Shown here in pieces: positions 9,292 to 60,486 of a stretch of 64,000 bases of DNA. The notes under the pieces were generated by a model. The model did no database searches and was not told the DNA's origin. It saw nothing but the letters and a program-made list of their open reading frames with translations. The stretch comes from a virus, in IMG/VR virus record IMGVR_UViG_3300045004_000088, positions 128,001 through 192,000 of that record. One strand, given 5' to 3'. How positions within the stretch are numbered: the first letter of the stretch is position 1; each line of letters opens with the position of its first letter. The position numbers and the translations under genes are program-made.

Positions 9292-10015
9292 CGGTCGCGC
9301 CTTCCACAGCTTCGTTCGCGGTCTGGAACGCCCCTACGATCAGCGCCTGAGTCAGATGATGATCGACACCACCAAGTACCTCGTCAAAGAGACTGCGGCG
9401 GTGATGGGCTACTGCCAGAGCGACGAGATCGGCCTGTGCTGGTACAGCGGCAACCCGGAAACCCAGATCTACTTCGACGGCCGCGTGGCGAAGATGATCA
9501 GTCAACTGGCCGCACAGACCAGCGTGTACTTCTACCGCCTGTGCGTGGACCGCCTGCCACCGGAGTACGCCGCGAAGATGCCGACCTTCGACTGTCGGTG
9601 CTGGACCGTGCCGAACTTCAACGAAGCCGCGAACACCTTCCTCTGGAGGGAGTTGGACGCGAGCAAGAACTCGATCTCGATGGCGGCGCGGAGCGTGTAC
9701 TCGCACAAGGCGTTGGAGAACAAGAACGGGTCGGAGATGCAGGAGATGCTCTGGCAGAAGGGCGTCAACTGGAACGACTACCCCCGGTTCTTCAAGCGGG
9801 GAACCTTCATCCAGCGGCAGATCGTGACCCGGAAGTTCACCACCGACGAACTCGACAAGTTGCCGCCGCAGCACGAGGCCCGGCACAACCCGGAACTGAC
9901 CTACGAGCGGTCGGACTACGTCGAACTGGACATGCCGCCCTTCAACAAGGTGGCGAACCGAGCGGCGGTCATCTTCGAGGGTGCCAAGCCGCAACTCTAC
10001 TCGTGTGCCGGGTGA
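9194..10015 (+). CDS. Thg1-like protein (tRNA-His guanylyltransferase family 3'-5' nucleotidyltransferase)
   Basis: GGAG RBS. VMARIDGRAFHSF matches the Thg1 VVVRLDGRNFHRF motif; GYCQSDE matches the GxSDE metal site. Confidence 0.7.
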   Translation: MESDALGDRMKMYERAGTAERFMPLLPVMARIDGRAFHSFVRGLERPYDQRLSQMMIDTTKYLVKETAAVMGYCQSDEIGLCWYSGNPETQIYFDGRVAKMISQLAAQTSVYFYRLCVDRLPPEYAAKMPTFDCRCWTVPNFNEAANTFLWRELDASKNSISMAARSVYSHKALENKNGSEMQEMLWQKGVNWNDYPRFFKRGTFIQRQIVTRKFTTDELDKLPPQHEARHNPELTYERSDYVELDMPPFNKVANRAAVIFEGAKPQLYSCAG

Positions 10016-10018
10016 ACC

Positions 10019-10219
10019 ATGAACCTCTGGTGTCGTCTGTTCCACCGCTGGAAGTACCACACCTACTTCGGCCCGACGTGTACGGAAACGACCGTCCACG
10101 CGGCTTGCGAAAAGTGCAAAAAGGTGTACGTCAGGATCTCTCGCGACTGTGCGCCGAGCGACGTGTTCTTCCAGAAAACCGGCATCGACTACAACTCGGT
10201 CGCAACCAAGTTCAACTAA
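10019..10219 (+). CDS. small Cys-containing hypothetical protein
   Basis: 66-aa ORF starting 4 nt after the Thg1-like stop. Confidence 0.4.
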   Translation: MNLWCRLFHRWKYHTYFGPTCTETTVHAACEKCKKVYVRISRDCAPSDVFFQKTGIDYNSVATKFN

Positions 10220-10258
10220 AGCAGCAAAGGCTACCAATTTGGTAGCCTTTGCTGCTTT
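10218..10258 (+). terminator. perfect hairpin terminator
   Basis: AAAGCAGCAAAGGCTACCAAA/TTTGGTAGCCTTTGCTGCTTT inverted repeat right after the stop at 10219. Confidence 0.6.
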
Positions 10259-10286
10259 AGTTGGTACAATCGAGTCGGAGGAACAC

Positions 10287-10403
10287 ATGCCGACCCCCCT
10301 CGAAATGATCGACGCGAAAGTCAAGAACTGCAAGCGTTGCGGTCTGTGCGACGGTCGCAAGAACACGGTTTTCGGCGAGGGCAATCCTTCCTTCTCTAAC
10401 TAA
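10287..10403 (+). pseudogene. N-terminal 38-aa fragment of a family-4 uracil-DNA glycosylase, truncated
   Basis: CKRCGLCDGRKNTVFGEGNPSF matches the UDG4 CxRCxLxxxRxxxVxGEGN motif. A stop follows; the rest of the domain is absent and a low-GC insert comes next. Confidence 0.5.
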
Positions 10404-10431
10404 CCATCTGTGCTGGTGATGGGTACAAAAA

Positions 10432-10482
10432 CACCGAGACGATATTGGATCACTCAAGTCCCGAACACCGTCTCGGTATTTA
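10432..10482 (-). terminator. hairpin with U-tract downstream of the minus gene ending 10524
   Basis: ACCGAGACG/CGTCTCGGT 9-bp stem with a large loop, followed by TTTTTG on the minus strand. Confidence 0.3.
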
Positions 10483-10523
10483 CTGTCTTCGGAGTTTATC
10501 TTTTACTTCCTGTAAGTCGCCGT

Positions 10524-11009
10524 TTATCTTTTCTTCATGCGTTTTGGACTGTTTGTAATACGAATGATCCTATCAACTTCTGATTCTTCTGGTTGAGACA
10601 TCCGACGCTCAACCTCTGCATCTGCTTGTTTTTGAAGTCGTGTATCTCGCTCATCATCTGTTTCCCAATTATCCATTTCTCCAGGCTTGATAAGCCCAAA
10701 GTGCTTATACGCTGGCCCAAATTTTTCCATTTCCTTTGGCGTACTGTTACGAATTAGTGGGTTGGGATGAGATTTATACTTCTCATAATGCTGCATGGCT
10801 TGTTGCATATATTGGTCATCTGGACTCAATTGTTGGGCTATAGGAGCCTGAACTGCCCCGCCAGCACCTAACATAGTTCCAGCAACAAGTGCTGGAGCAA
10901 GGGCTTTCTTTCCTAACCATCGCCCAGCACTACGCAATTGATGCCCACCCCAAATTTCATTATACATTTGCTGATCTCGTACAGCAAGCCATTCGTGAAA
11001 TGTATTCAT
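10524..11009 (-). CDS. hypothetical protein in a lower-GC inserted block
   Basis: Met 168 of ORF 10524..11510; starts 4 nt after the stop of 11014..11955; local composition is AT-richer. Confidence 0.45.
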   Translation of the reverse strand: MNTFHEWLAVRDQQMYNEIWGGHQLRSAGRWLGKKALAPALVAGTMLGAGGAVQAPIAQQLSPDDQYMQQAMQHYEKYKSHPNPLIRNSTPKEMEKFGPAYKHFGLIKPGEMDNWETDDERDTRLQKQADAEVERRMSQPEESEVDRIIRITNSPKRMKKR

Positions 11010-11013
11010 ACAG

Positions 11014-11955
11014 CTATTTAGTAGATGGACTTGATTTTTGCAAAAACTGACCTCTCTCATCACGCTCCATAACCCTCTTCTTCTGACTTTCAGAGAGTTT
11101 CTTACGGCTCTCGTCACTCCACACCTTGCCCAAATGGGCCGTGCGGCGTCCGTTGTGCTTCTCGGCAAGAGCCTGACACTCATCAACCTCAAGCACCTGG
11201 GTCGGGATGAATGGATTGACCGAGTTGATCTCGGCACGGCACAGTTTACAGCCGTTGTCGTTTCGGCTGGTGTCGAAGTACAGGACGATCTCCTTGAGAT
11301 GTGGCCGCAGCAGTACCGCCTTGTTCTCACCTTCTGCTTGCACCACGTCGCCACAAAGGGTCTGGATAGTTGTTGCCGCTTCCAGAAGATGTTGCTTGGA
11401 CTGCCGGTACTCAGAAACCAGGGAATGCAGACCAACCTCCAGTTGTTCGATCTCCACCTGTTTGTCCTTGATAAACTGTTTGATGTCAGGATCGTCGCCC
11501 ATGTCAGCAAACTTCAAGATCAACTTCTGCTTCTCGGCTTTCAAAGAAACGACCTTACCACGCACAGACTGGTGAACTTCATCAAAGATTTCTTGGTACG
11601 TCAATTCCAAATAGTCGGCGTCATTGTCTGGAGTCGCCATGTACTTCCACGCACGCTTCTTGAAGTTCTTGGCCTTCTCATCCTCCGTATCGCCAGGGAG
11701 GTTAGCGAAGATGAACTTATACATCTTCTGAGCGACTTCACCGCAAGCGGCGATGGCATTGTCTGTCCGCTTGTTTGTTGGGTCCAGCATCTCTCCGATC
11801 AGTTCGTTGACGATGCCGTTGGAGGACTTGACCTTTTCACAGAGCGTAAGGTAGCTCTTTTCGAGCCAACGCAGCCAGTTGTCAATGATTTCGTGGATCA
11901 CGTCGATCTTGACTGCCCCACACTTCTCACAGCGATAGTTTTTCGACGGCTTCAT
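11014..11955 (-). CDS. NUMOD3-motif protein, putative homing-endonuclease-like or DNA-binding
   Basis: 313-aa ORF; C-term GRRTAHLGKVWSDESRKKLSESQKKR resembles NUMOD3; N-term CEKCG; lies inside the UDG-disrupting insert. Confidence 0.5.
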   Translation of the reverse strand: MKPSKNYRCEKCGAVKIDVIHEIIDNWLRWLEKSYLTLCEKVKSSNGIVNELIGEMLDPTNKRTDNAIAACGEVAQKMYKFIFANLPGDTEDEKAKNFKKRAWKYMATPDNDADYLELTYQEIFDEVHQSVRGKVVSLKAEKQKLILKFADMGDDPDIKQFIKDKQVEIEQLEVGLHSLVSEYRQSKQHLLEAATTIQTLCGDVVQAEGENKAVLLRPHLKEIVLYFDTSRNDNGCKLCRAEINSVNPFIPTQVLEVDECQALAEKHNGRRTAHLGKVWSDESRKKLSESQKKRVMERDERGQFLQKSSPSTK

Positions 11956-12043
11956 CCCATCGACGGCAGCGCGTTCGACTGCGACATCCTCGACATGATC
12001 GCCGCGTTGAAGAAGAAATACGCCGACAAGCCATAATTACAGC

Positions 12044-12864: not shown

Positions 12865-13436
12865 TTCGGACCCCTCTTCAAAGGAACCGCTTTCAGCTTC
12901 TCAAGGTGCTTGTCGGGAACGCCCTTGAGGTGGTGCATCATGTTCTTCAACTTGTTGGCGATCTGGTTGGCACCAGTGCCGTCAACGACTTTGGAACTGT
13001 TGACTGAAACGGTCTTGCGGTCGCGATTGTAGAACCCGCGAGACATCACAAACGAGTGATGTTGTGGATTGAAACTGACGAGTCCGACCCATTCGCCGTC
13101 GTCCCAGTTGCGGCTGGAAACGAGAATGCGAAGCGGTTTCTCGTCAAACACCAACTTGACGTGGTATCCGTTGTTCTTCAGAGCCGCGCTGACGTAGCCC
13201 AGACAAATCTTGGCGAACGCTTCTTCGGCGTCTTTCAGGCTTGTGCGGTAATTGACTTCGACGCTGTAACGGGTAGATTCAGCCCCTTCGAGCAACATCT
13301 CATCGGGTTCGTCTTTGCAGGCTTCGGTGAAGAAAGCGACGGCCGTTCGTGCGAGCGCGGGGACGCTCACTTCGACAAAATGCTTGCCGACGATTTCGTT
13401 GACCAGTTTCTTTCGGTAGTCTTTCCAAGAACGCAT
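12861..13436 (-). CDS. hypothetical protein
   Basis: 191-aa ORF, 4-nt overlap with the downstream Nudix gene (operon-like). Confidence 0.55.
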   Translation of the reverse strand: MRSWKDYRKKLVNEIVGKHFVEVSVPALARTAVAFFTEACKDEPDEMLLEGAESTRYSVEVNYRTSLKDAEEAFAKICLGYVSAALKNNGYHVKLVFDEKPLRILVSSRNWDDGEWVGLVSFNPQHHSFVMSRGFYNRDRKTVSVNSSKVVDGTGANQIANKLKNMMHHLKGVPDKHLEKLKAVPLKRGPK

Positions 13437-21033: not shown

Positions 21034-21522
21034 ATGAAGAGTTTCTACGAATTCGCCGAGAGAGCGAAACGTCACAGGCTGATGAGGGAAGTCGGTGAGG
21101 CGGAACCGGCGGCTGCGCAAAACAACATGGCCGCACAGAACGCACAGAAAATGGCTACACCGCCGTCGAACAAGAACGCGACGAACCCGCCAGAAGGCAA
21201 CGACTCGGACCTGTTCGCGGCTTTGGCTAAGAACTGGAAAAACTTCTACGCGGCCAACGACAACAAGGCGGCATTCGCCAGACTACAAGCGACCGACTTC
21301 CAGCAGACGCCCGGTGTGAAGGAAATCAACCAGACACTCGGCAACCTATCGACCCAGTTGGACAAGCTCGCGGCATCACTCGCCAAGCCGCAACAAAAGC
21401 CGGCTAATAACGCCGCTGCGACGGCCAACAACGCGGGCAGCAACACGGCCGGCGCGAGTGCCGGTGCTAAACCTGCGGCGGGGGCGGCACCTCAACAGGC
21501 GGCTGGTGGGATGGGTCAGTAA
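21034..21522 (+). CDS. Ala/Asn-rich low-complexity protein
   Basis: 162-aa ORF with GAGGA RBS. Confidence 0.5.
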   Translation: MKSFYEFAERAKRHRLMREVGEAEPAAAQNNMAAQNAQKMATPPSNKNATNPPEGNDSDLFAALAKNWKNFYAANDNKAAFARLQATDFQQTPGVKEINQTLGNLSTQLDKLAASLAKPQQKPANNAAATANNAGSNTAGASAGAKPAAGAAPQQAAGGMGQ

Positions 21523-57561: not shown

Positions 57562-57855
57562 TCAAGACGAGGTTTTATTTTGTTGTTGTTGGCCGTGGCT
57601 CAGGTACTTCTCCAAAACGTCCCAGACGTTCGTGGACTTCAGCTTGGTCGGTGCTTGGTTGCCAGCACCCGGTGCGCCACCGCCCGGCCCGCCCATAGGA
57701 GGAGGTCCACCCGGAGGCAAACCGCCGCCACCCATAGGTGGAGGACCGCCCATCGGAGGACCACCCGGCGGTGCGCCACCGCCCGGAGGACCGCCCGCCG
57801 GTGGTGGCGGTGCCGCGTCTTCGATAAGATTCAAGAACTGGGTGAATGTCTTCAT
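57562..57855 (-). CDS. Gly/Pro-rich low-complexity small protein (uncertain; the opposite strand also carries an ORF)
   Basis: Met 66 of ORF 57562..58050. GTATATAC lies 6 nt upstream. A hairpin plus U-tract terminator overlaps the stop. Confidence 0.3.
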   Translation of the reverse strand: MKTFTQFLNLIEDAAPPPPAGGPPGGGAPPGGPPMGGPPPMGGGGLPPGGPPPMGGPGGGAPGAGNQAPTKLKSTNVWDVLEKYLSHGQQQQNKTSS

Positions 57856-57860
57856 CGCAG

Positions 57861-57868
57861 GTATATAC
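57861..57868. promoter_or_regulatory. palindromic GTATATAC motif
   Basis: Identical to the flank GGTATATACG at 2178. Sits between the minus start 57855 and the plus ORF 57895. Confidence 0.3.
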
Positions 57869-58114
57869 GATCCGGGTAAGAAGAAAGGGGCGTCATGGCT
57901 TGGAACTTTTGTGGCGGGTGCAGGCGGGCTTTTGAAAGCTGGATTCACTGTCAGGGCTTCAGGTGCCACGACTGCCCTCGTCAGATTCCCTCGATACTCG
58001 ATGTGATGAGCAGAGCCGATTTGGAAGAAAATCCAAAATCGCGCGAACAAAACCCGTCGAGCGGCGTCTACTATTGTGAGCGGCCCGCGAAGCCGAAAAA
58101 AATTCGCGAACGGG

Positions 58115-58343
58115 TTGACGAGAAAAAGAAGTCAGCCTACTATGTAACGACAGAGCGGCAAAAGCCCTCTGCAAACACACGAAGAAAAATGAACACGTTC
58201 TCCCTTAGTCTGTTTAGCTCGCTGTCGTCCTTGTATCACAAGAGACGAGACGCAGGCTCTACGGGCTGAGTGAGGTACACCAGAACCTCTCAGACGAACA
58301 CCCGAAGACCCGCGTCTCCCAAGACGCGGGTCTTCTTGTTTTT
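58115..58343 (+). ncRNA. candidate small RNA transcription unit (sigma70-like promoter to rho-independent terminator)
   Basis: TTGACG-17nt-TACTAT at 58115-58143. About 190 nt of AT-rich sequence with no convincing ORF. Strong terminator at 58304-58343. Confidence 0.3.
58304..58343 (+). terminator. rho-independent terminator
   Basis: GAAGACCCGCGTCT-ccca-AGACGCGGGTCTTC followed by TTGTTTTT. Confidence 0.65.
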
Positions 58344-58352
58344 CTGGAGGCT

Positions 58353-58724
58353 GTGATGGAATTCAAACGTGACGTGATGAGGTTGTTGGTTCCGGGCGTC
58401 AAGTACGTCGGCCCCGGTTTGGACTACGAAAAACTGCCGCCGCAAACGGAAGCGGCGGTCAAGATGGTGTGCAAGAAGTTCGGGATCAGCTACAGCCACG
58501 CGGAAGAGATTGTCGGGGACATCGACAAGTACCAGTGGCACATCGAGCGGATCAGGTTCATGGACGACAAGGTGAGAGAGTTCCTTCGGGAACACGACGT
58601 GGTCGGCGCGGTCAAGGCGATCAAGGCGGTTCGACCGGACTGGGGCTTGCTGAACTGCAAGCTGTACATGGAAGACGTGCGTGACGGGAAGAAACCGTGG
58701 CCGGCAGTGAAGGCGGTCAAATGA
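58353..58724 (+). CDS. hypothetical protein
   Basis: GGAGG RBS; GTG at 58353 or ATG at 58356. Confidence 0.55.
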   Translation: MMEFKRDVMRLLVPGVKYVGPGLDYEKLPPQTEAAVKMVCKKFGISYSHAEEIVGDIDKYQWHIERIRFMDDKVREFLREHDVVGAVKAIKAVRPDWGLLNCKLYMEDVRDGKKPWPAVKAVK

Positions 58725-58891
58725 AAAAGGCCGTCAACGAAGAAGAGAAACAGTGGATGAAAAACCGCGACAAGAAGTTGCGGCCGAAGCCCGGACTGTT
58801 TTGGTGCGACTGTGATCGCAACCACGTTTCCGCGTGGCAAAAATGCGAGGTATGTAACAGTCGGACTGGCAAGCGGTGCTTTAAGAAGTGA
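58721..58891 (+). CDS. small zinc-finger protein
   Basis: ATGA overlap with the upstream gene; CDCD...CEVCNSRTGKRC. Confidence 0.4.
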   Translation: MKKAVNEEEKQWMKNRDKKLRPKPGLFWCDCDRNHVSAWQKCEVCNSRTGKRCFKK

Positions 58892-58893
58892 AT

Positions 58894-58921
58894 GCGGTTG
58901 TGGCGAAACTGGTAGACGCGC
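58894..58921 (+). repeat. 28-nt duplicate of the 5' end of tRNA-Leu(CAG) (acceptor plus D-arm)
   Basis: gcggttgtggcgaaa[c/t]tggtagacgcgc matches 59459-59486 with one mismatch; diverges after the D-arm; no T-arm or 3' acceptor. Confidence 0.5.
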
Positions 58922-58969
58922 AAGATGGCAAATTCTGAGGTGTGATACTCTGCTAAGTGCGGAGGAAAC

Positions 58970-59458
58970 ATGCCAAAGAAAAGAAACTGGACCGACGAGC
59001 AATTGAAGGAAGCTGTTGCTACTTCGTTCTCGTACTCAGAAGTGTTGAGAAAACTGAAGTTGAAGTTCGCTGGCGGAACTCACGCGGCGATCAAGCAAAA
59101 AGTGAAGTGGTTGAAACTCAATGTTTCGCATTTCACAGGCAGTAGTTGGTGTCGAGGTGAGAAGTACCGACAAACGCTACTGAAAAGGAACACCCGAACA
59201 CTGGAAGAGATCTTGGTAAAAGACTCGACCTATCAATCGGGGGCGAAGCTGAAAAAGAGGCTGGTGACGGCGGGAATTTTGAAAGACATCTGCTGCCAGT
59301 GTGGGAATGAAGGTGTGTGGTGCGGTCAAGCTCTGACGTTACAGCTTGATCACAAGAATGGCGACCGGACTGATCACAGGTTAGAAAACCTCCGAGTGAT
59401 ATGTCCAAACTGTCATTCGCAGACACCTAACTTTGCTGGACGTAACGCGAAGAAGTAA
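58970..59458 (+). CDS. HNH homing endonuclease
   Basis: LQLDHKNGDRTDHRLENLRVICPNCH; GGAGGAAAC RBS; stop abuts the tRNA-Leu start. Confidence 0.65.
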   Translation: MPKKRNWTDEQLKEAVATSFSYSEVLRKLKLKFAGGTHAAIKQKVKWLKLNVSHFTGSSWCRGEKYRQTLLKRNTRTLEEILVKDSTYQSGAKLKKRLVTAGILKDICCQCGNEGVWCGQALTLQLDHKNGDRTDHRLENLRVICPNCHSQTPNFAGRNAKK

Positions 59459-59540
59459 GCGGTTGTGGCGAAATTGGTAGACGCGCGGTCTTCAGATGGC
59501 CGTCCCGCAAGGGGTGTGGGTTCGACTCCCACCAACCGCA
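59459..59540 (+). tRNA. tRNA-Leu(CAG), type II
   Basis: Acceptor GCGGTTG/CAACCGC. Anticodon stem CGGTC/GGCCG with loop TTCAGAT. Long variable arm. T-arm GTGGG-TTCGACT-CCCAC. No encoded CCA. Confidence 0.7.
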
Positions 59541-59607
59541 CTGTAAGACCCGGCAACGGGTGTTCTTTGACAACTGGGCGAGACAACAAGCGGTTCTCGG
59601 AGCAGCT

Positions 59608-59862
59608 ATGAAAAACGTTTGGTTGGAATTTTTGCAGTTGAAGACCGATTTCCCGCTCGGATCGTGGGTACAAATGACACTCGATCCTTTGGACGATTAC
59701 TTTGAATCGATCTGGGCTTCTGATATGATGGGGGTAGTGACGGGGTACAACATCATGCAGTCACTGGTGGTGGTGTACTTCGACAACAACGTCACGATGC
59801 AGTGCGGCCCGAAACTACTGAAGGTCGTTGAAAGCCCTTTGGTCCATGACTGGGACATGTGA
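59608..59862 (+). CDS. small hypothetical protein
   Basis: Met 17 of ORF 59560..59862 with GGAGCAGC RBS. Confidence 0.45.
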   Translation: MKNVWLEFLQLKTDFPLGSWVQMTLDPLDDYFESIWASDMMGVVTGYNIMQSLVVVYFDNNVTMQCGPKLLKVVESPLVHDWDM

Positions 59863-60097: not shown

Positions 60098-60179
60098 GCC
60101 AAAGTGACGGAAATGGCAGACGTACTCCGCTCAAAACGGAGCGCCGCAAGGCGTGTGGGTTCGATTCCCACCTTTGGCA
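60098..60179 (+). tRNA. tRNA-Leu(CAA), type II
   Basis: Acceptor GCCAAAG/CTTTGGC. Anticodon stem CTCCG/CGGAG with loop CTCAAAA. Variable arm CGCCGCAAGGCGTGT. T-arm GTGGG-TTCGATT-CCCAC. Confidence 0.7.
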
Positions 60180-60185
60180 CTAACT

Positions 60186-60268: not shown

Positions 60269-60486
60269 GCATCCGCAACGGAATAGCCTTGATCGGTCTT
60301 GGGATAATTAACAAGGTGCTGCTCGATAAGTAGCGAAAGCTACCGCTTGCGGGCGTAAGGTCGGGGTGCAAGTATCGACCTCAAGACGGCGGATGCAATC
60401 GGGTGTCGATCCACACGGCAGACTGTAAATCTGCTGCCATTATCCTGTGTGGCGGTCGGCGATGGGTTCAACTCCTACGGCACCCA
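60269..60486 (+). ncRNA. unresolved structured RNA: 128-nt helix-closed domain with GNRA tetraloops plus a tRNA-like 3' part
   Basis: GCATCCGC (60269-76) pairs with GCGGATGC (60389-96) around GTAGC-GAAA-GCTAC and C-GTAA-G. The 3' part has GGGTGTC/GGCACCC acceptor-like ends and GCAGA-CTGTAAA-TCTGC, but no room for a D-arm. Confidence 0.3.

Follow-up and report, generated by a model that had tools for sequence, protein, structure and literature searches.

What does a 28-nucleotide (nt) copy of the 5′ end of a tRNA gene mean when it stands upstream of a nuclease gene whose other end runs into the complete tRNA gene itself? The question is raised by a 64,000-nt stretch of viral DNA (positions 128,001 to 192,000 of IMG/VR record IMGVR_UViG_3300045004_000088; hereafter the window, numbered from its first letter), in which an HNH endonuclease open reading frame (ORF) lies between a piece of tRNA-Leu(CAG) and the intact tRNA-Leu(CAG) gene. 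An earlier reading made from the letters alone (the sequence-only reading) saw in this layout the footprint of a homing endonuclease inserted into a tRNA gene, with repair or duplication, or else a decayed second tRNA copy. We consider it probable that the tRNA-Leu(CAG) gene of this large phage, of jumbo size, was invaded by a free-standing cassette for an HNH homing endonuclease. The cassette is present in this phage and absent from the same site in a relative, the tRNA fragment lies where the relative's tRNA begins, the layout is repeated at several tRNA genes, and the family as a whole is associated with tRNA genes, tRNA-Leu above all.

The fragment occupies 58894-58929 on the plus (+) strand and begins 2 nt past the stop codon of a 56-amino acid (aa) gene. 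Its first 28 nt, 58894-58921 (GCGGTTGTGGCGAAACTGGTAGACGCGC), agree with 59459-59486 of the intact tRNA at 27 of 28 positions, at a distance of 565 nt from start to start, and these copies are the sole two matches in the window when up to 3 mismatches are allowed. A 28-nt match of this quality was reached in none of 100 dinucleotide-preserving shuffles of the window, which bears out the duplicate described in the sequence-only reading. The sole mismatch is a C for T at position 16, in the D-loop. The same reading had the two copies diverge after nt 28. There is indeed a break at that point, a 6-nt deletion that takes out the 5′ strand of the anticodon stem, but 58922-58929 (AAGATGGC) then match the tRNA again at 7 of 8 positions (CAGATGGC, the 3′ part of the anticodon loop and stem). 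Since the similarity resumes, the fragment is the damaged remnant of a 5′ half of about 42 nt and not a clean 28-mer. The pseudo-tRNA call that had been looked for here does not appear: in 58894-58970 neither ARAGORN nor Rfam, at E ≤ 10, reports a tRNA. The fragment lacks the full cloverleaf of a pseudo-tRNA and is a relic.

Two other ways of describing the repeat were tried and set aside. A 9-nt sequence, AAGAAGTRA, precedes both copies (58885-58893 and 59450-59458) and could be read as a longer duplication; it is not relied on because Lys-rich C-termini occur family-wide in these HNH proteins and could produce the match by chance. A group I intron or a split tRNA does not fit either, as no intron model matches 58600-59700 and the downstream tRNA is complete and unsplit.

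The ORF between the copies (58970-59458, +) encodes 162 aa. The sequence-only reading placed it exactly between them, and at its 3′ end this is so: the stop codon TAA occupies 59456-59458, and its final base directly precedes tRNA nt 1. At the other end, 48 nt separate the 28-nt fragment from the start of the ORF. The protein has a helical N-terminal part and a C-terminal Cys4-zinc HNH domain of the beta-beta-alpha-metal kind. It matches PHROG phrog_10822, "HNH endonuclease", over its full length (E 5.7e-51), while the Pfam matches stay under the curated cut-offs (HNH_3, 22.5 bits against 24.8; HNH, 15.3 bits against 21.4). HNH families alone match; a GIY-YIG domain is absent among the family matches of the protein. 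Across an alignment of the window ORF with 49 database homologues, C108, C111, H128, N140, C145 and C148 do not vary, and the conservation of H149 is 90% or higher. The HNH motif reads LDH128 ... EN140L ... CPNCH149, and the two CxxC pairs (C108-x2-C111 and C145-x2-C148) that flank the active site and constitute the Cys4 zinc site of the PF01844-type subgroup are present.

In an AlphaFold2 model (mean predicted local distance difference test score, pLDDT, 87.8) the N-terminal domain is helical, and residues 125-149 form a C-terminal strand-strand-helix unit, with strands at 125-128 and 141-144, a helix at 146-149 and pLDDT of 94-96 there. A fold search of the PDB placed HNH enzymes on top (McrA, Cap5 and Gme HNH), none of them at E ≤ 0.001, and a sequence search of the PDB with the protein gave no match. 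By its motif and its modelled fold, the protein is an intact HNH nuclease, which presumably cleaves DNA. A tblastn search with it hit 227 phage records, T5 hegA included as a distant relative. Another window ORF of likewise 162 aa (21034-21522) was considered as a paralogue and rejected, as it has no homology to the HNH protein.

What does this locus look like without the nuclease gene? Several searches did not answer the question. Exact-protein look-ups of the window proteins returned near-identical contigs alone, and since all of these bear the HNH gene they are uninformative on empty sites. A DNA search for close relatives among cultured phages gave tRNA-sized matches only, none useful, and IMG/VR, searched with the flanking proteins, gave nothing for the 122-aa protein upstream of the HNH site and one distant locus without tRNAs for a 189-aa protein. 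In another contig, L007, no synteny with the window was found. A relative was found through the 122-aa protein, whose homologue on L006, a 57-kilobase (kb) contig of a related phage, is 82% identical. The flanking proteins of the two phages are 71-82% identical and the gene order is the same.

At the tRNA-Leu(CAG) locus (site A), L006 has an intact tRNA-Leu(CAG), identical to that of the window at 83 of 83 positions and located 1 nt past the stop of the 56-aa gene; it has neither an HNH gene nor a tRNA fragment at this site. The comparison with an HNH-free relative, which the sequence-only reading had proposed, thus finds an intact tRNA gene where the window has the fragment, and supports insertion of a homing endonuclease into a tRNA gene. 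Because the window fragment and the L006 tRNA start after the same 56-aa gene, the fragment is the displaced 5′ part of the original tRNA. Downstream of the tRNA the two phages continue with the same terminator-like hairpin and the same 84-aa gene, the 3′ flank of the tRNA being conserved. The extra DNA in the window amounts to about 565 base pairs. The 5′ half of the window tRNA is a copy that travels with the cassette or was restored beside it, and the 3′ flank is ancestral.

At a second tRNA gene the occupancy is reversed. Site B of the window is an HNH-free tRNA-Leu(CAA) (60098-60180, +; called by ARAGORN) that directly follows a 75-aa gene. In L006, a 163-aa HNH protein, 54% identical to that of the window, is encoded directly ahead of this tRNA, its stop codon forming nt 8-10 of tRNA-Leu(CAA), and a 26-nt copy of the 5′ end of tRNA-Leu(CAA), matching at 23 of 26 positions, lies 73 nt before the ATG. 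The window is therefore full at site A and empty at site B, and L006 is empty at A and full at B. The HNH cassette is an insertion/deletion polymorphism with conserved flanks. The two alternatives of the sequence-only reading, insertion with duplication and a decayed copy, do not separate fully on this evidence; the single tRNA at the empty site, together with the lack of any 3′-half remains in the window, favours insertion with duplication of the 5′ half.

The same layout was found in other contigs. A 1.9-kb contig, L134, is syntenic with the window and more distant than L006 (44% identity in the 84-aa protein and 58% in the tail of the 122-aa protein). Its site A is occupied, with a 23-nt relic and an HNH protein 71% identical to that of the window. 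The higher identity of the nuclease than of its flanks (71% against 44-58%, the flanks compared being short and few) suggests lateral movement. The order relic, HNH gene, tRNA recurs in L008 and L044: the L008 protein is 49% identical to that of the window and precedes tRNA-Leu(CAA), and the L044 protein is 42% identical and precedes tRNA-Tyr.

In all five cases (window, L006, L134, L008 and L044) the relic starts at tRNA nt 1 and is well preserved to nt 25-28, and the relic-to-ATG distance is 62-88 nt. In four of them (window, L006, L134 and L008) a deletion or scramble at about nt 27-34 is followed by recognisable anticodon-loop sequence. Relic and intact partner differ at D-loop position 16 in five of five clear cases, as C in the relic and T in the tRNA in the window, L006 and L008, and as T and C, respectively, in L044 and L134; in the window (27/28) and in L044 (26/27) this is the sole difference. 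A rough post hoc estimate puts the coincidence at about 1e-3. The difference may reflect target immunity, or mere tolerance of either pyrimidine at this position.

A third paralogue, of 175 aa and 37-39% identical, is found on contig L002 (19402-19929), 4.4 kb beyond the end of the window. Its stop falls in the D-loop of a tRNA-Leu(GAG), and upstream of it lie a complete tRNA-Leu(GAG) and tRNA-like debris. The whole arrangement, a paralogue flanked by two tRNA-Leu(GAG) genes, spans L002 19129-19998 (about 4.1 to 5.0 kb past the window end). The debris lies in the 190-nt stretch upstream of the paralogue and includes GTGACGGAACAGCAGACGTAC, which resembles the D-arm of tRNA-Leu(CAA) and not that of the neighbouring tRNAs.

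Is the link with tRNA genes a property of the family? We surveyed 29 viral and 80 metagenomic loci with HNH homologues, of which 108, counting the window, L006 and L002, could be assessed at the 3′ end of the ORF. A tRNA was taken to abut when it lay on the same strand and its start fell in the interval from -45 nt to +30 nt relative to the ORF end. By this measure, 47 of the 108 loci have an abutting tRNA at the HNH stop, and 31 of these 47 are tRNA-Leu, against a share of 26% among all tRNAs there (binomial p about 1e-8). The commonest register, found at 11 loci, puts the HNH stop codon at tRNA nt 8-10. For the 101 loci with both ORF ends defined, a tRNA lies within 1 kb in 88, a directly adjacent same-strand tRNA is present in 69, and the adjacent tRNA is tRNA-Leu in 44. 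In most loci with an abutting tRNA, a relic is undetectable. Cultured phages show a similar tendency. Actinophage homologues of the protein overlap tRNA genes: the HNH gene of Gordonia phage Sixama overlaps tRNA-Leu by 10 nt, and each end of the ORF in Rhodococcus phage Dorin is touched by a tRNA. In Synechococcus phage S-CRM01 a tRNA-Leu lies just upstream of the gene, and the Kayvirus and Atu_ph07 copies have no tRNA annotated nearby.

Exact searches with the 28-mer led to L119 and L120, viral contigs in which it is cut off at the same point. In L119, it stands 124 nt upstream of a 32%-identical HNH gene, and the tRNA-Leu(CAG) downstream of that gene differs in its acceptor stem. On chromosomes, too, the 28-mer is the 5′ end of a tRNA gene: tRNA-Leu(CAG) in Hymenobacter species, and tRNA-Leu(GAG) in some Bacilli. 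Every occurrence belongs to a tRNA-Leu, and none to the unrelated conserved element that the sequence-only reading had held against its own proposal. The 28/28 identity of the L119 and window relics might be taken to prove that relic and cassette travel together, but the presence of the 28-mer in tRNA-Leu of Hymenobacter and some Bacilli makes shared tRNA ancestry an equally good explanation. L119 is an unrelated viral contig in which a 25-tRNA array includes, at 9877-11269, two HNH paralogues, both of which run on into a tRNA-Leu(CAG), and between the two there are a 3′ tRNA remnant, the 28-nt 5′ relic and a variable-arm-like piece. As for the intact phage tRNA, its nt 1-28 (59459-59486) equal those of the chromosomal tRNA-Leu(CAG) in several Hymenobacter and Hymenobacteraceae (L121-L133), the rest being different, and this match may be a clue to the host.

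The signals around the ORF are consistent with a gene that carries its own expression unit. In the spacer between relic and ORF (58930-58969, +) we read an extended -10-like element, TGTGATACT, at 58940-58948, and a Shine-Dalgarno sequence, GGAGG, at 58961-58965, 5 nt ahead of the ATG. By eye, the spacer is partly alignable with the spacers of paralogous HNH genes (AATTC..., CTGCTA(TA)A...). The -10-like element would make the spacer a putative promoter. Downstream of the ORF stand the intact tRNA-Leu(CAG) (59459-59541, +; ARAGORN, and Rfam tRNA at 53 bits) and, directly 3′ of it and in the same place in L006, the terminator-like hairpin with a T-run (59548-59571, +), which is probably the end of the HNH-tRNA transcription unit. 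A hairpin is also predicted at 58939-58974 (+), pairing GGUGUG with CAUGCC and CUCUGC with GCGGAG; in read-through transcripts it would mask the Shine-Dalgarno sequence and start codon of the HNH gene, and a transcript started from the -10-like element would be without its 5′ arm.

The gene has neither an intron nor an intein for a host: a complete tRNA follows the ORF, which has its own GGAGG, as expected of a free-standing gene. From the layout we infer a nuclease activity, a cut site, a repair pathway, a promoter and a route of RNA processing, as follows. The inserted block would have three parts: a short spacer that bears a promoter-like signal and one for ribosome binding, the HNH ORF, and, fused to its stop codon, a new copy of the tRNA 5′ half. 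The new 5′ half would join the resident 3′ half, leaving the tRNA gene intact and its original terminator in place, and the resident 5′ half, now displaced, would persist next to the upstream gene as a damaged relic without function. The enzyme would cut cassette-free tRNA-Leu genes in the region from the D-stem to the anticodon arm, where the cut is placed because all relics are damaged there. The template for repair would be a cassette-bearing genome, pairing on the left with the relic and on the right with the tRNA 3′ half, and the copying of everything between would yield the observed structure. Since the tRNA stays functional, the cost of insertion would be removed. The terminator after the tRNA suggests that HNH gene and tRNA form one transcript; RNase P would cut this RNA at tRNA nt 1, and in most relatives, which have the stop codon at tRNA nt 8-10, the cut would remove the stop and may limit expression of the nuclease.

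A bolder version of this proposal is possible, and we put it forward only tentatively. The HNH proteins might form a widespread phage clade specialised on tRNA-Leu and other tRNAs with long variable arms, spreading by what could be called half-gene replacement. The cassette would be fused to a replacement tRNA 5′ half, with its own stop usually at tRNA nt 8-10; invasion would split the resident tRNA at the anticodon arm and rebuild it in one step; and the position 16 difference, seen in five of five cases, would mark the switch from a cleavable to an immune allele.

Several observations weigh against invasion of the tRNA gene by a homing nuclease. The Pfam HNH models miss their cut-offs and the solved structures give no significant match, and a consensus promoter scan finds no promoter in the spacer 58930-58969. 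The target site is guessed from where the relics are damaged. Moreover, the tRNA of the cassette equals that of the empty site in L006, so that a target lying wholly within the tRNA would leave the carrier cleavable and its self-protection unexplained. Two genomes cannot tell a gain in the window from a precise loss in L006 through recombination between the repeats. Finally, the upstream tRNA is a complete tRNA-Leu, not a relic, in 23 of 48 cases, and the L119 relic keeps a piece of the variable arm, which fits the decay of a whole second copy.

These last points lead to the main rival, which we regard as unlikely: an ancestor with two complete tRNA-Leu(CAG) genes and the HNH gene between them, the upstream copy having lost its 3′ two-thirds in the window, and the two copies having recombined in L006 with deletion of the HNH gene. 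There would then have been no insertion into a tRNA at all. A complete tRNA-Leu is indeed found 30-90 nt upstream of the HNH gene in L012, L020, L022, L023, L028, L029, L135 and L137, tRNA-Leu flanks the gene on both sides at six loci, and the paralogue beyond the window end sits between two tRNA-Leu(GAG) genes. The piece retained by the L119 relic is the variable-arm-like CCCGCAAGGG. Given the complete upstream tRNA-Leu genes in relatives and this piece, decay of a whole duplicate must happen at least sometimes. For the window itself, the 40 nt between relic and ATG have no likeness to a variable arm or T-arm and by eye resemble the spacers of paralogous cassettes. Random decay, moreover, predicts something other than four or five independent relics that are preserved to nt 25-28 and damaged just after, and both empty sites hold exactly one tRNA within ancestral flanks.

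It is considerably less probable that the fragment is kept for a function, either as an RNA element that affects expression or processing of the HNH gene and the tRNA, or as a DNA site bound by the nuclease. Such a role would account for the far better preservation of relic nt 1-26 than of nt 27-43 (27/28 in the window, 26/27 in L044) and for the difference from the intact partner at position 16 in all five relics, and the hairpin at 58939-58974 could mask the ribosome-binding site and AUG in read-through transcripts. The fold of the relic-spacer RNA, however, barely beats shuffles (z = -2.07, marginal and not convincing), and gene conversion between direct repeats would likewise keep nt 1-26 alike. 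The relic is also not required, as it goes undetected in most family members whose HNH gene abuts a tRNA. Chance similarity or an assembly artefact has nothing in its favour except that, in general, assembly of metagenomes may collapse repeats or make chimeras of them: no shuffle reaches the match, the layout occurs in unrelated assemblies too, nine contigs, drawn from several samples and including four of 0.2-1 megabases, encode the identical HNH protein, and the same gene order in L002-L004 (three samples; JGI and Logan), together with the near-identical L005, excludes an artefact of assembly.

How does invasion of tRNA-Leu by an HNH cassette compare with what has been described? That nuclease genes occur within phage tRNA clusters is already established. 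The closest parallel is SegB of phages T4 and T6, a free-standing GIY-YIG enzyme of the T-even tRNA cluster that cuts tRNA genes of related phages, is inherited preferentially with the flanking tRNA genes, and has homologues that are statistically associated with tRNAs (PMC2330249; PMC13096335). SegB also drives amplification of tRNA-Tyr, duplicating the whole tRNA-Tyr and a truncated segB (PMC2330249; PMC13096335). In T4, the end of the segB ORF meets the 5′ end of tRNA-Arg, and tRNA processing has been proposed to limit its expression (PMC2330249). The window gene resembles segB in being free-standing and in lying within a phage tRNA cluster with its ORF end at a tRNA 5′ end, and its product would act in a similar way. 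It differs in superfamily (HNH, not GIY-YIG). For SegB, moreover, no isotype preference has been reported, whereas 31 of the 47 abutting tRNAs in the window family are tRNA-Leu, and the layout of half-tRNA relic and replacement has not been described.

A second comparison is with T5 hegA (F-TflIV in source annotations), which belongs to the same HNH subfamily, is 38.6% identical by tblastn over the C-terminal 70 aa, and lies in the tRNA region of T5, directly after tRNA-Ile. Unlike the window gene, hegA encodes 227 aa, of which the catalytic domain alone is alignable, and it has no tRNA following and no relic annotated. The F-Tfl enzymes, which T5 carries in its tRNA region, are reported to be site-specific endonucleases (cited in PMC2330249 and PMC5714182). 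In the tRNA arrays of mycobacteriophages and of mycobacterial plasmids and chromosomes, no other protein-coding genes are as widespread as HNH genes, and these have been proposed to create and spread diversity in the tRNA repertoire (PMC5966550; PMC6409571). These reports concern co-location; the base-level anatomy of insertion, empty sites and an isotype preference are absent from the accessible accounts.

Partial duplication of a host gene beside a nuclease ORF is known from fungal mitochondria, where a nuclease ORF inserts into atp6 or cob, a duplicated C-terminal segment keeps the gene working, and the displaced fragment persists (PMC6279837). The likeness to the window tRNA lies in this partial duplication; the fungal hosts, however, are protein-coding genes with a duplicated 3′ end and LAGLIDADG or GIY-YIG nucleases, whereas the window has a tRNA, a duplicated 5′ half and an HNH protein. 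Integrative elements at tRNA att sites duplicate the 3′ end of the tRNA and bring an integrase. Like these elements, and like group I introns of tRNA-Leu, the cassette is mobile DNA that targets a tRNA gene and leaves the tRNA functional. The integrative elements differ in that the window duplicates the 5′ half and has no integrase adjacent: the genes neighbouring the HNH gene are small ORFs with no Pfam match, and no tyrosine or serine integrase is among them. The fusion of an ORF to a replacement tRNA 5′ half with a relic upstream, the reciprocal empty sites and the preference for tRNA-Leu appear to be undescribed in the searchable literature.

The wider neighbourhood holds a ribonucleotide reductase, an SbcCD-like pair, a CTP synthase and a long tRNA array interleaved with small ORFs. 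At 60391-60485 (+) there is a tRNA-like RNA, with an L006 orthologue at 11943-12030, that receives no ARAGORN call. It has an acceptor stem (GGGTGTC/GGCACCC), an anticodon stem-loop with GUA (Tyr) and a T-arm; its variable region is long and its D-arm aberrant. From Rfam it receives no more than a weak match to tRNA-Sec (22.5 bits, E 0.59), and it overlaps the GTG start that a program had listed for the 189-aa ORF. In the L006 copy both the acceptor stem and the anticodon stem show compensatory changes, so a genuine structured RNA is probable. The two phages differ in a further nuclease gene: L006 has an extra 80-aa HNH/HNH_5 gene (12998-13240) beside a DUF4031 gene, and the window lacks it. 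A strong inverted repeat at 58297-58342 (21-nt arms, 86% complementary, a 4-nt loop, then a T-run), just ahead of the 122-aa gene, looks like a terminator. Further upstream, a Pro/Gly-rich stretch (PPPPAGGPPGGGAPPGG...) is open on both strands (57562-58050 on the minus strand, 57632-58006 on the plus strand) at a switch in gene orientation.

Phage tRNA arrays are increasingly viewed as counter-defence cargo. Nuclease genes within them are suspected of shuffling and amplifying tRNAs, and for SegB this was shown in 2026. The present locus amounts to a natural experiment at base level, with occupied and empty states of two tRNA-Leu genes in two related phages, and it shows an HNH element sitting inside a tRNA gene without destroying that gene. 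The homologues, roughly 400 or more in number, form a large and easily recognised set with a strong tRNA-Leu bias. For annotation, the warning is that a short piece of a tRNA 5′ end ahead of an HNH gene is a footprint and not a gene. If the target were confirmed, it would account for part of the multiplicity of tRNA-Leu and part of the tRNA debris that phage genomes contain, and the protein could be a compact nuclease with a conserved, predictable target. If half-gene replacement proves true, these elements would drive the duplication, replacement and diversification of tRNA-Leu in phage arrays.

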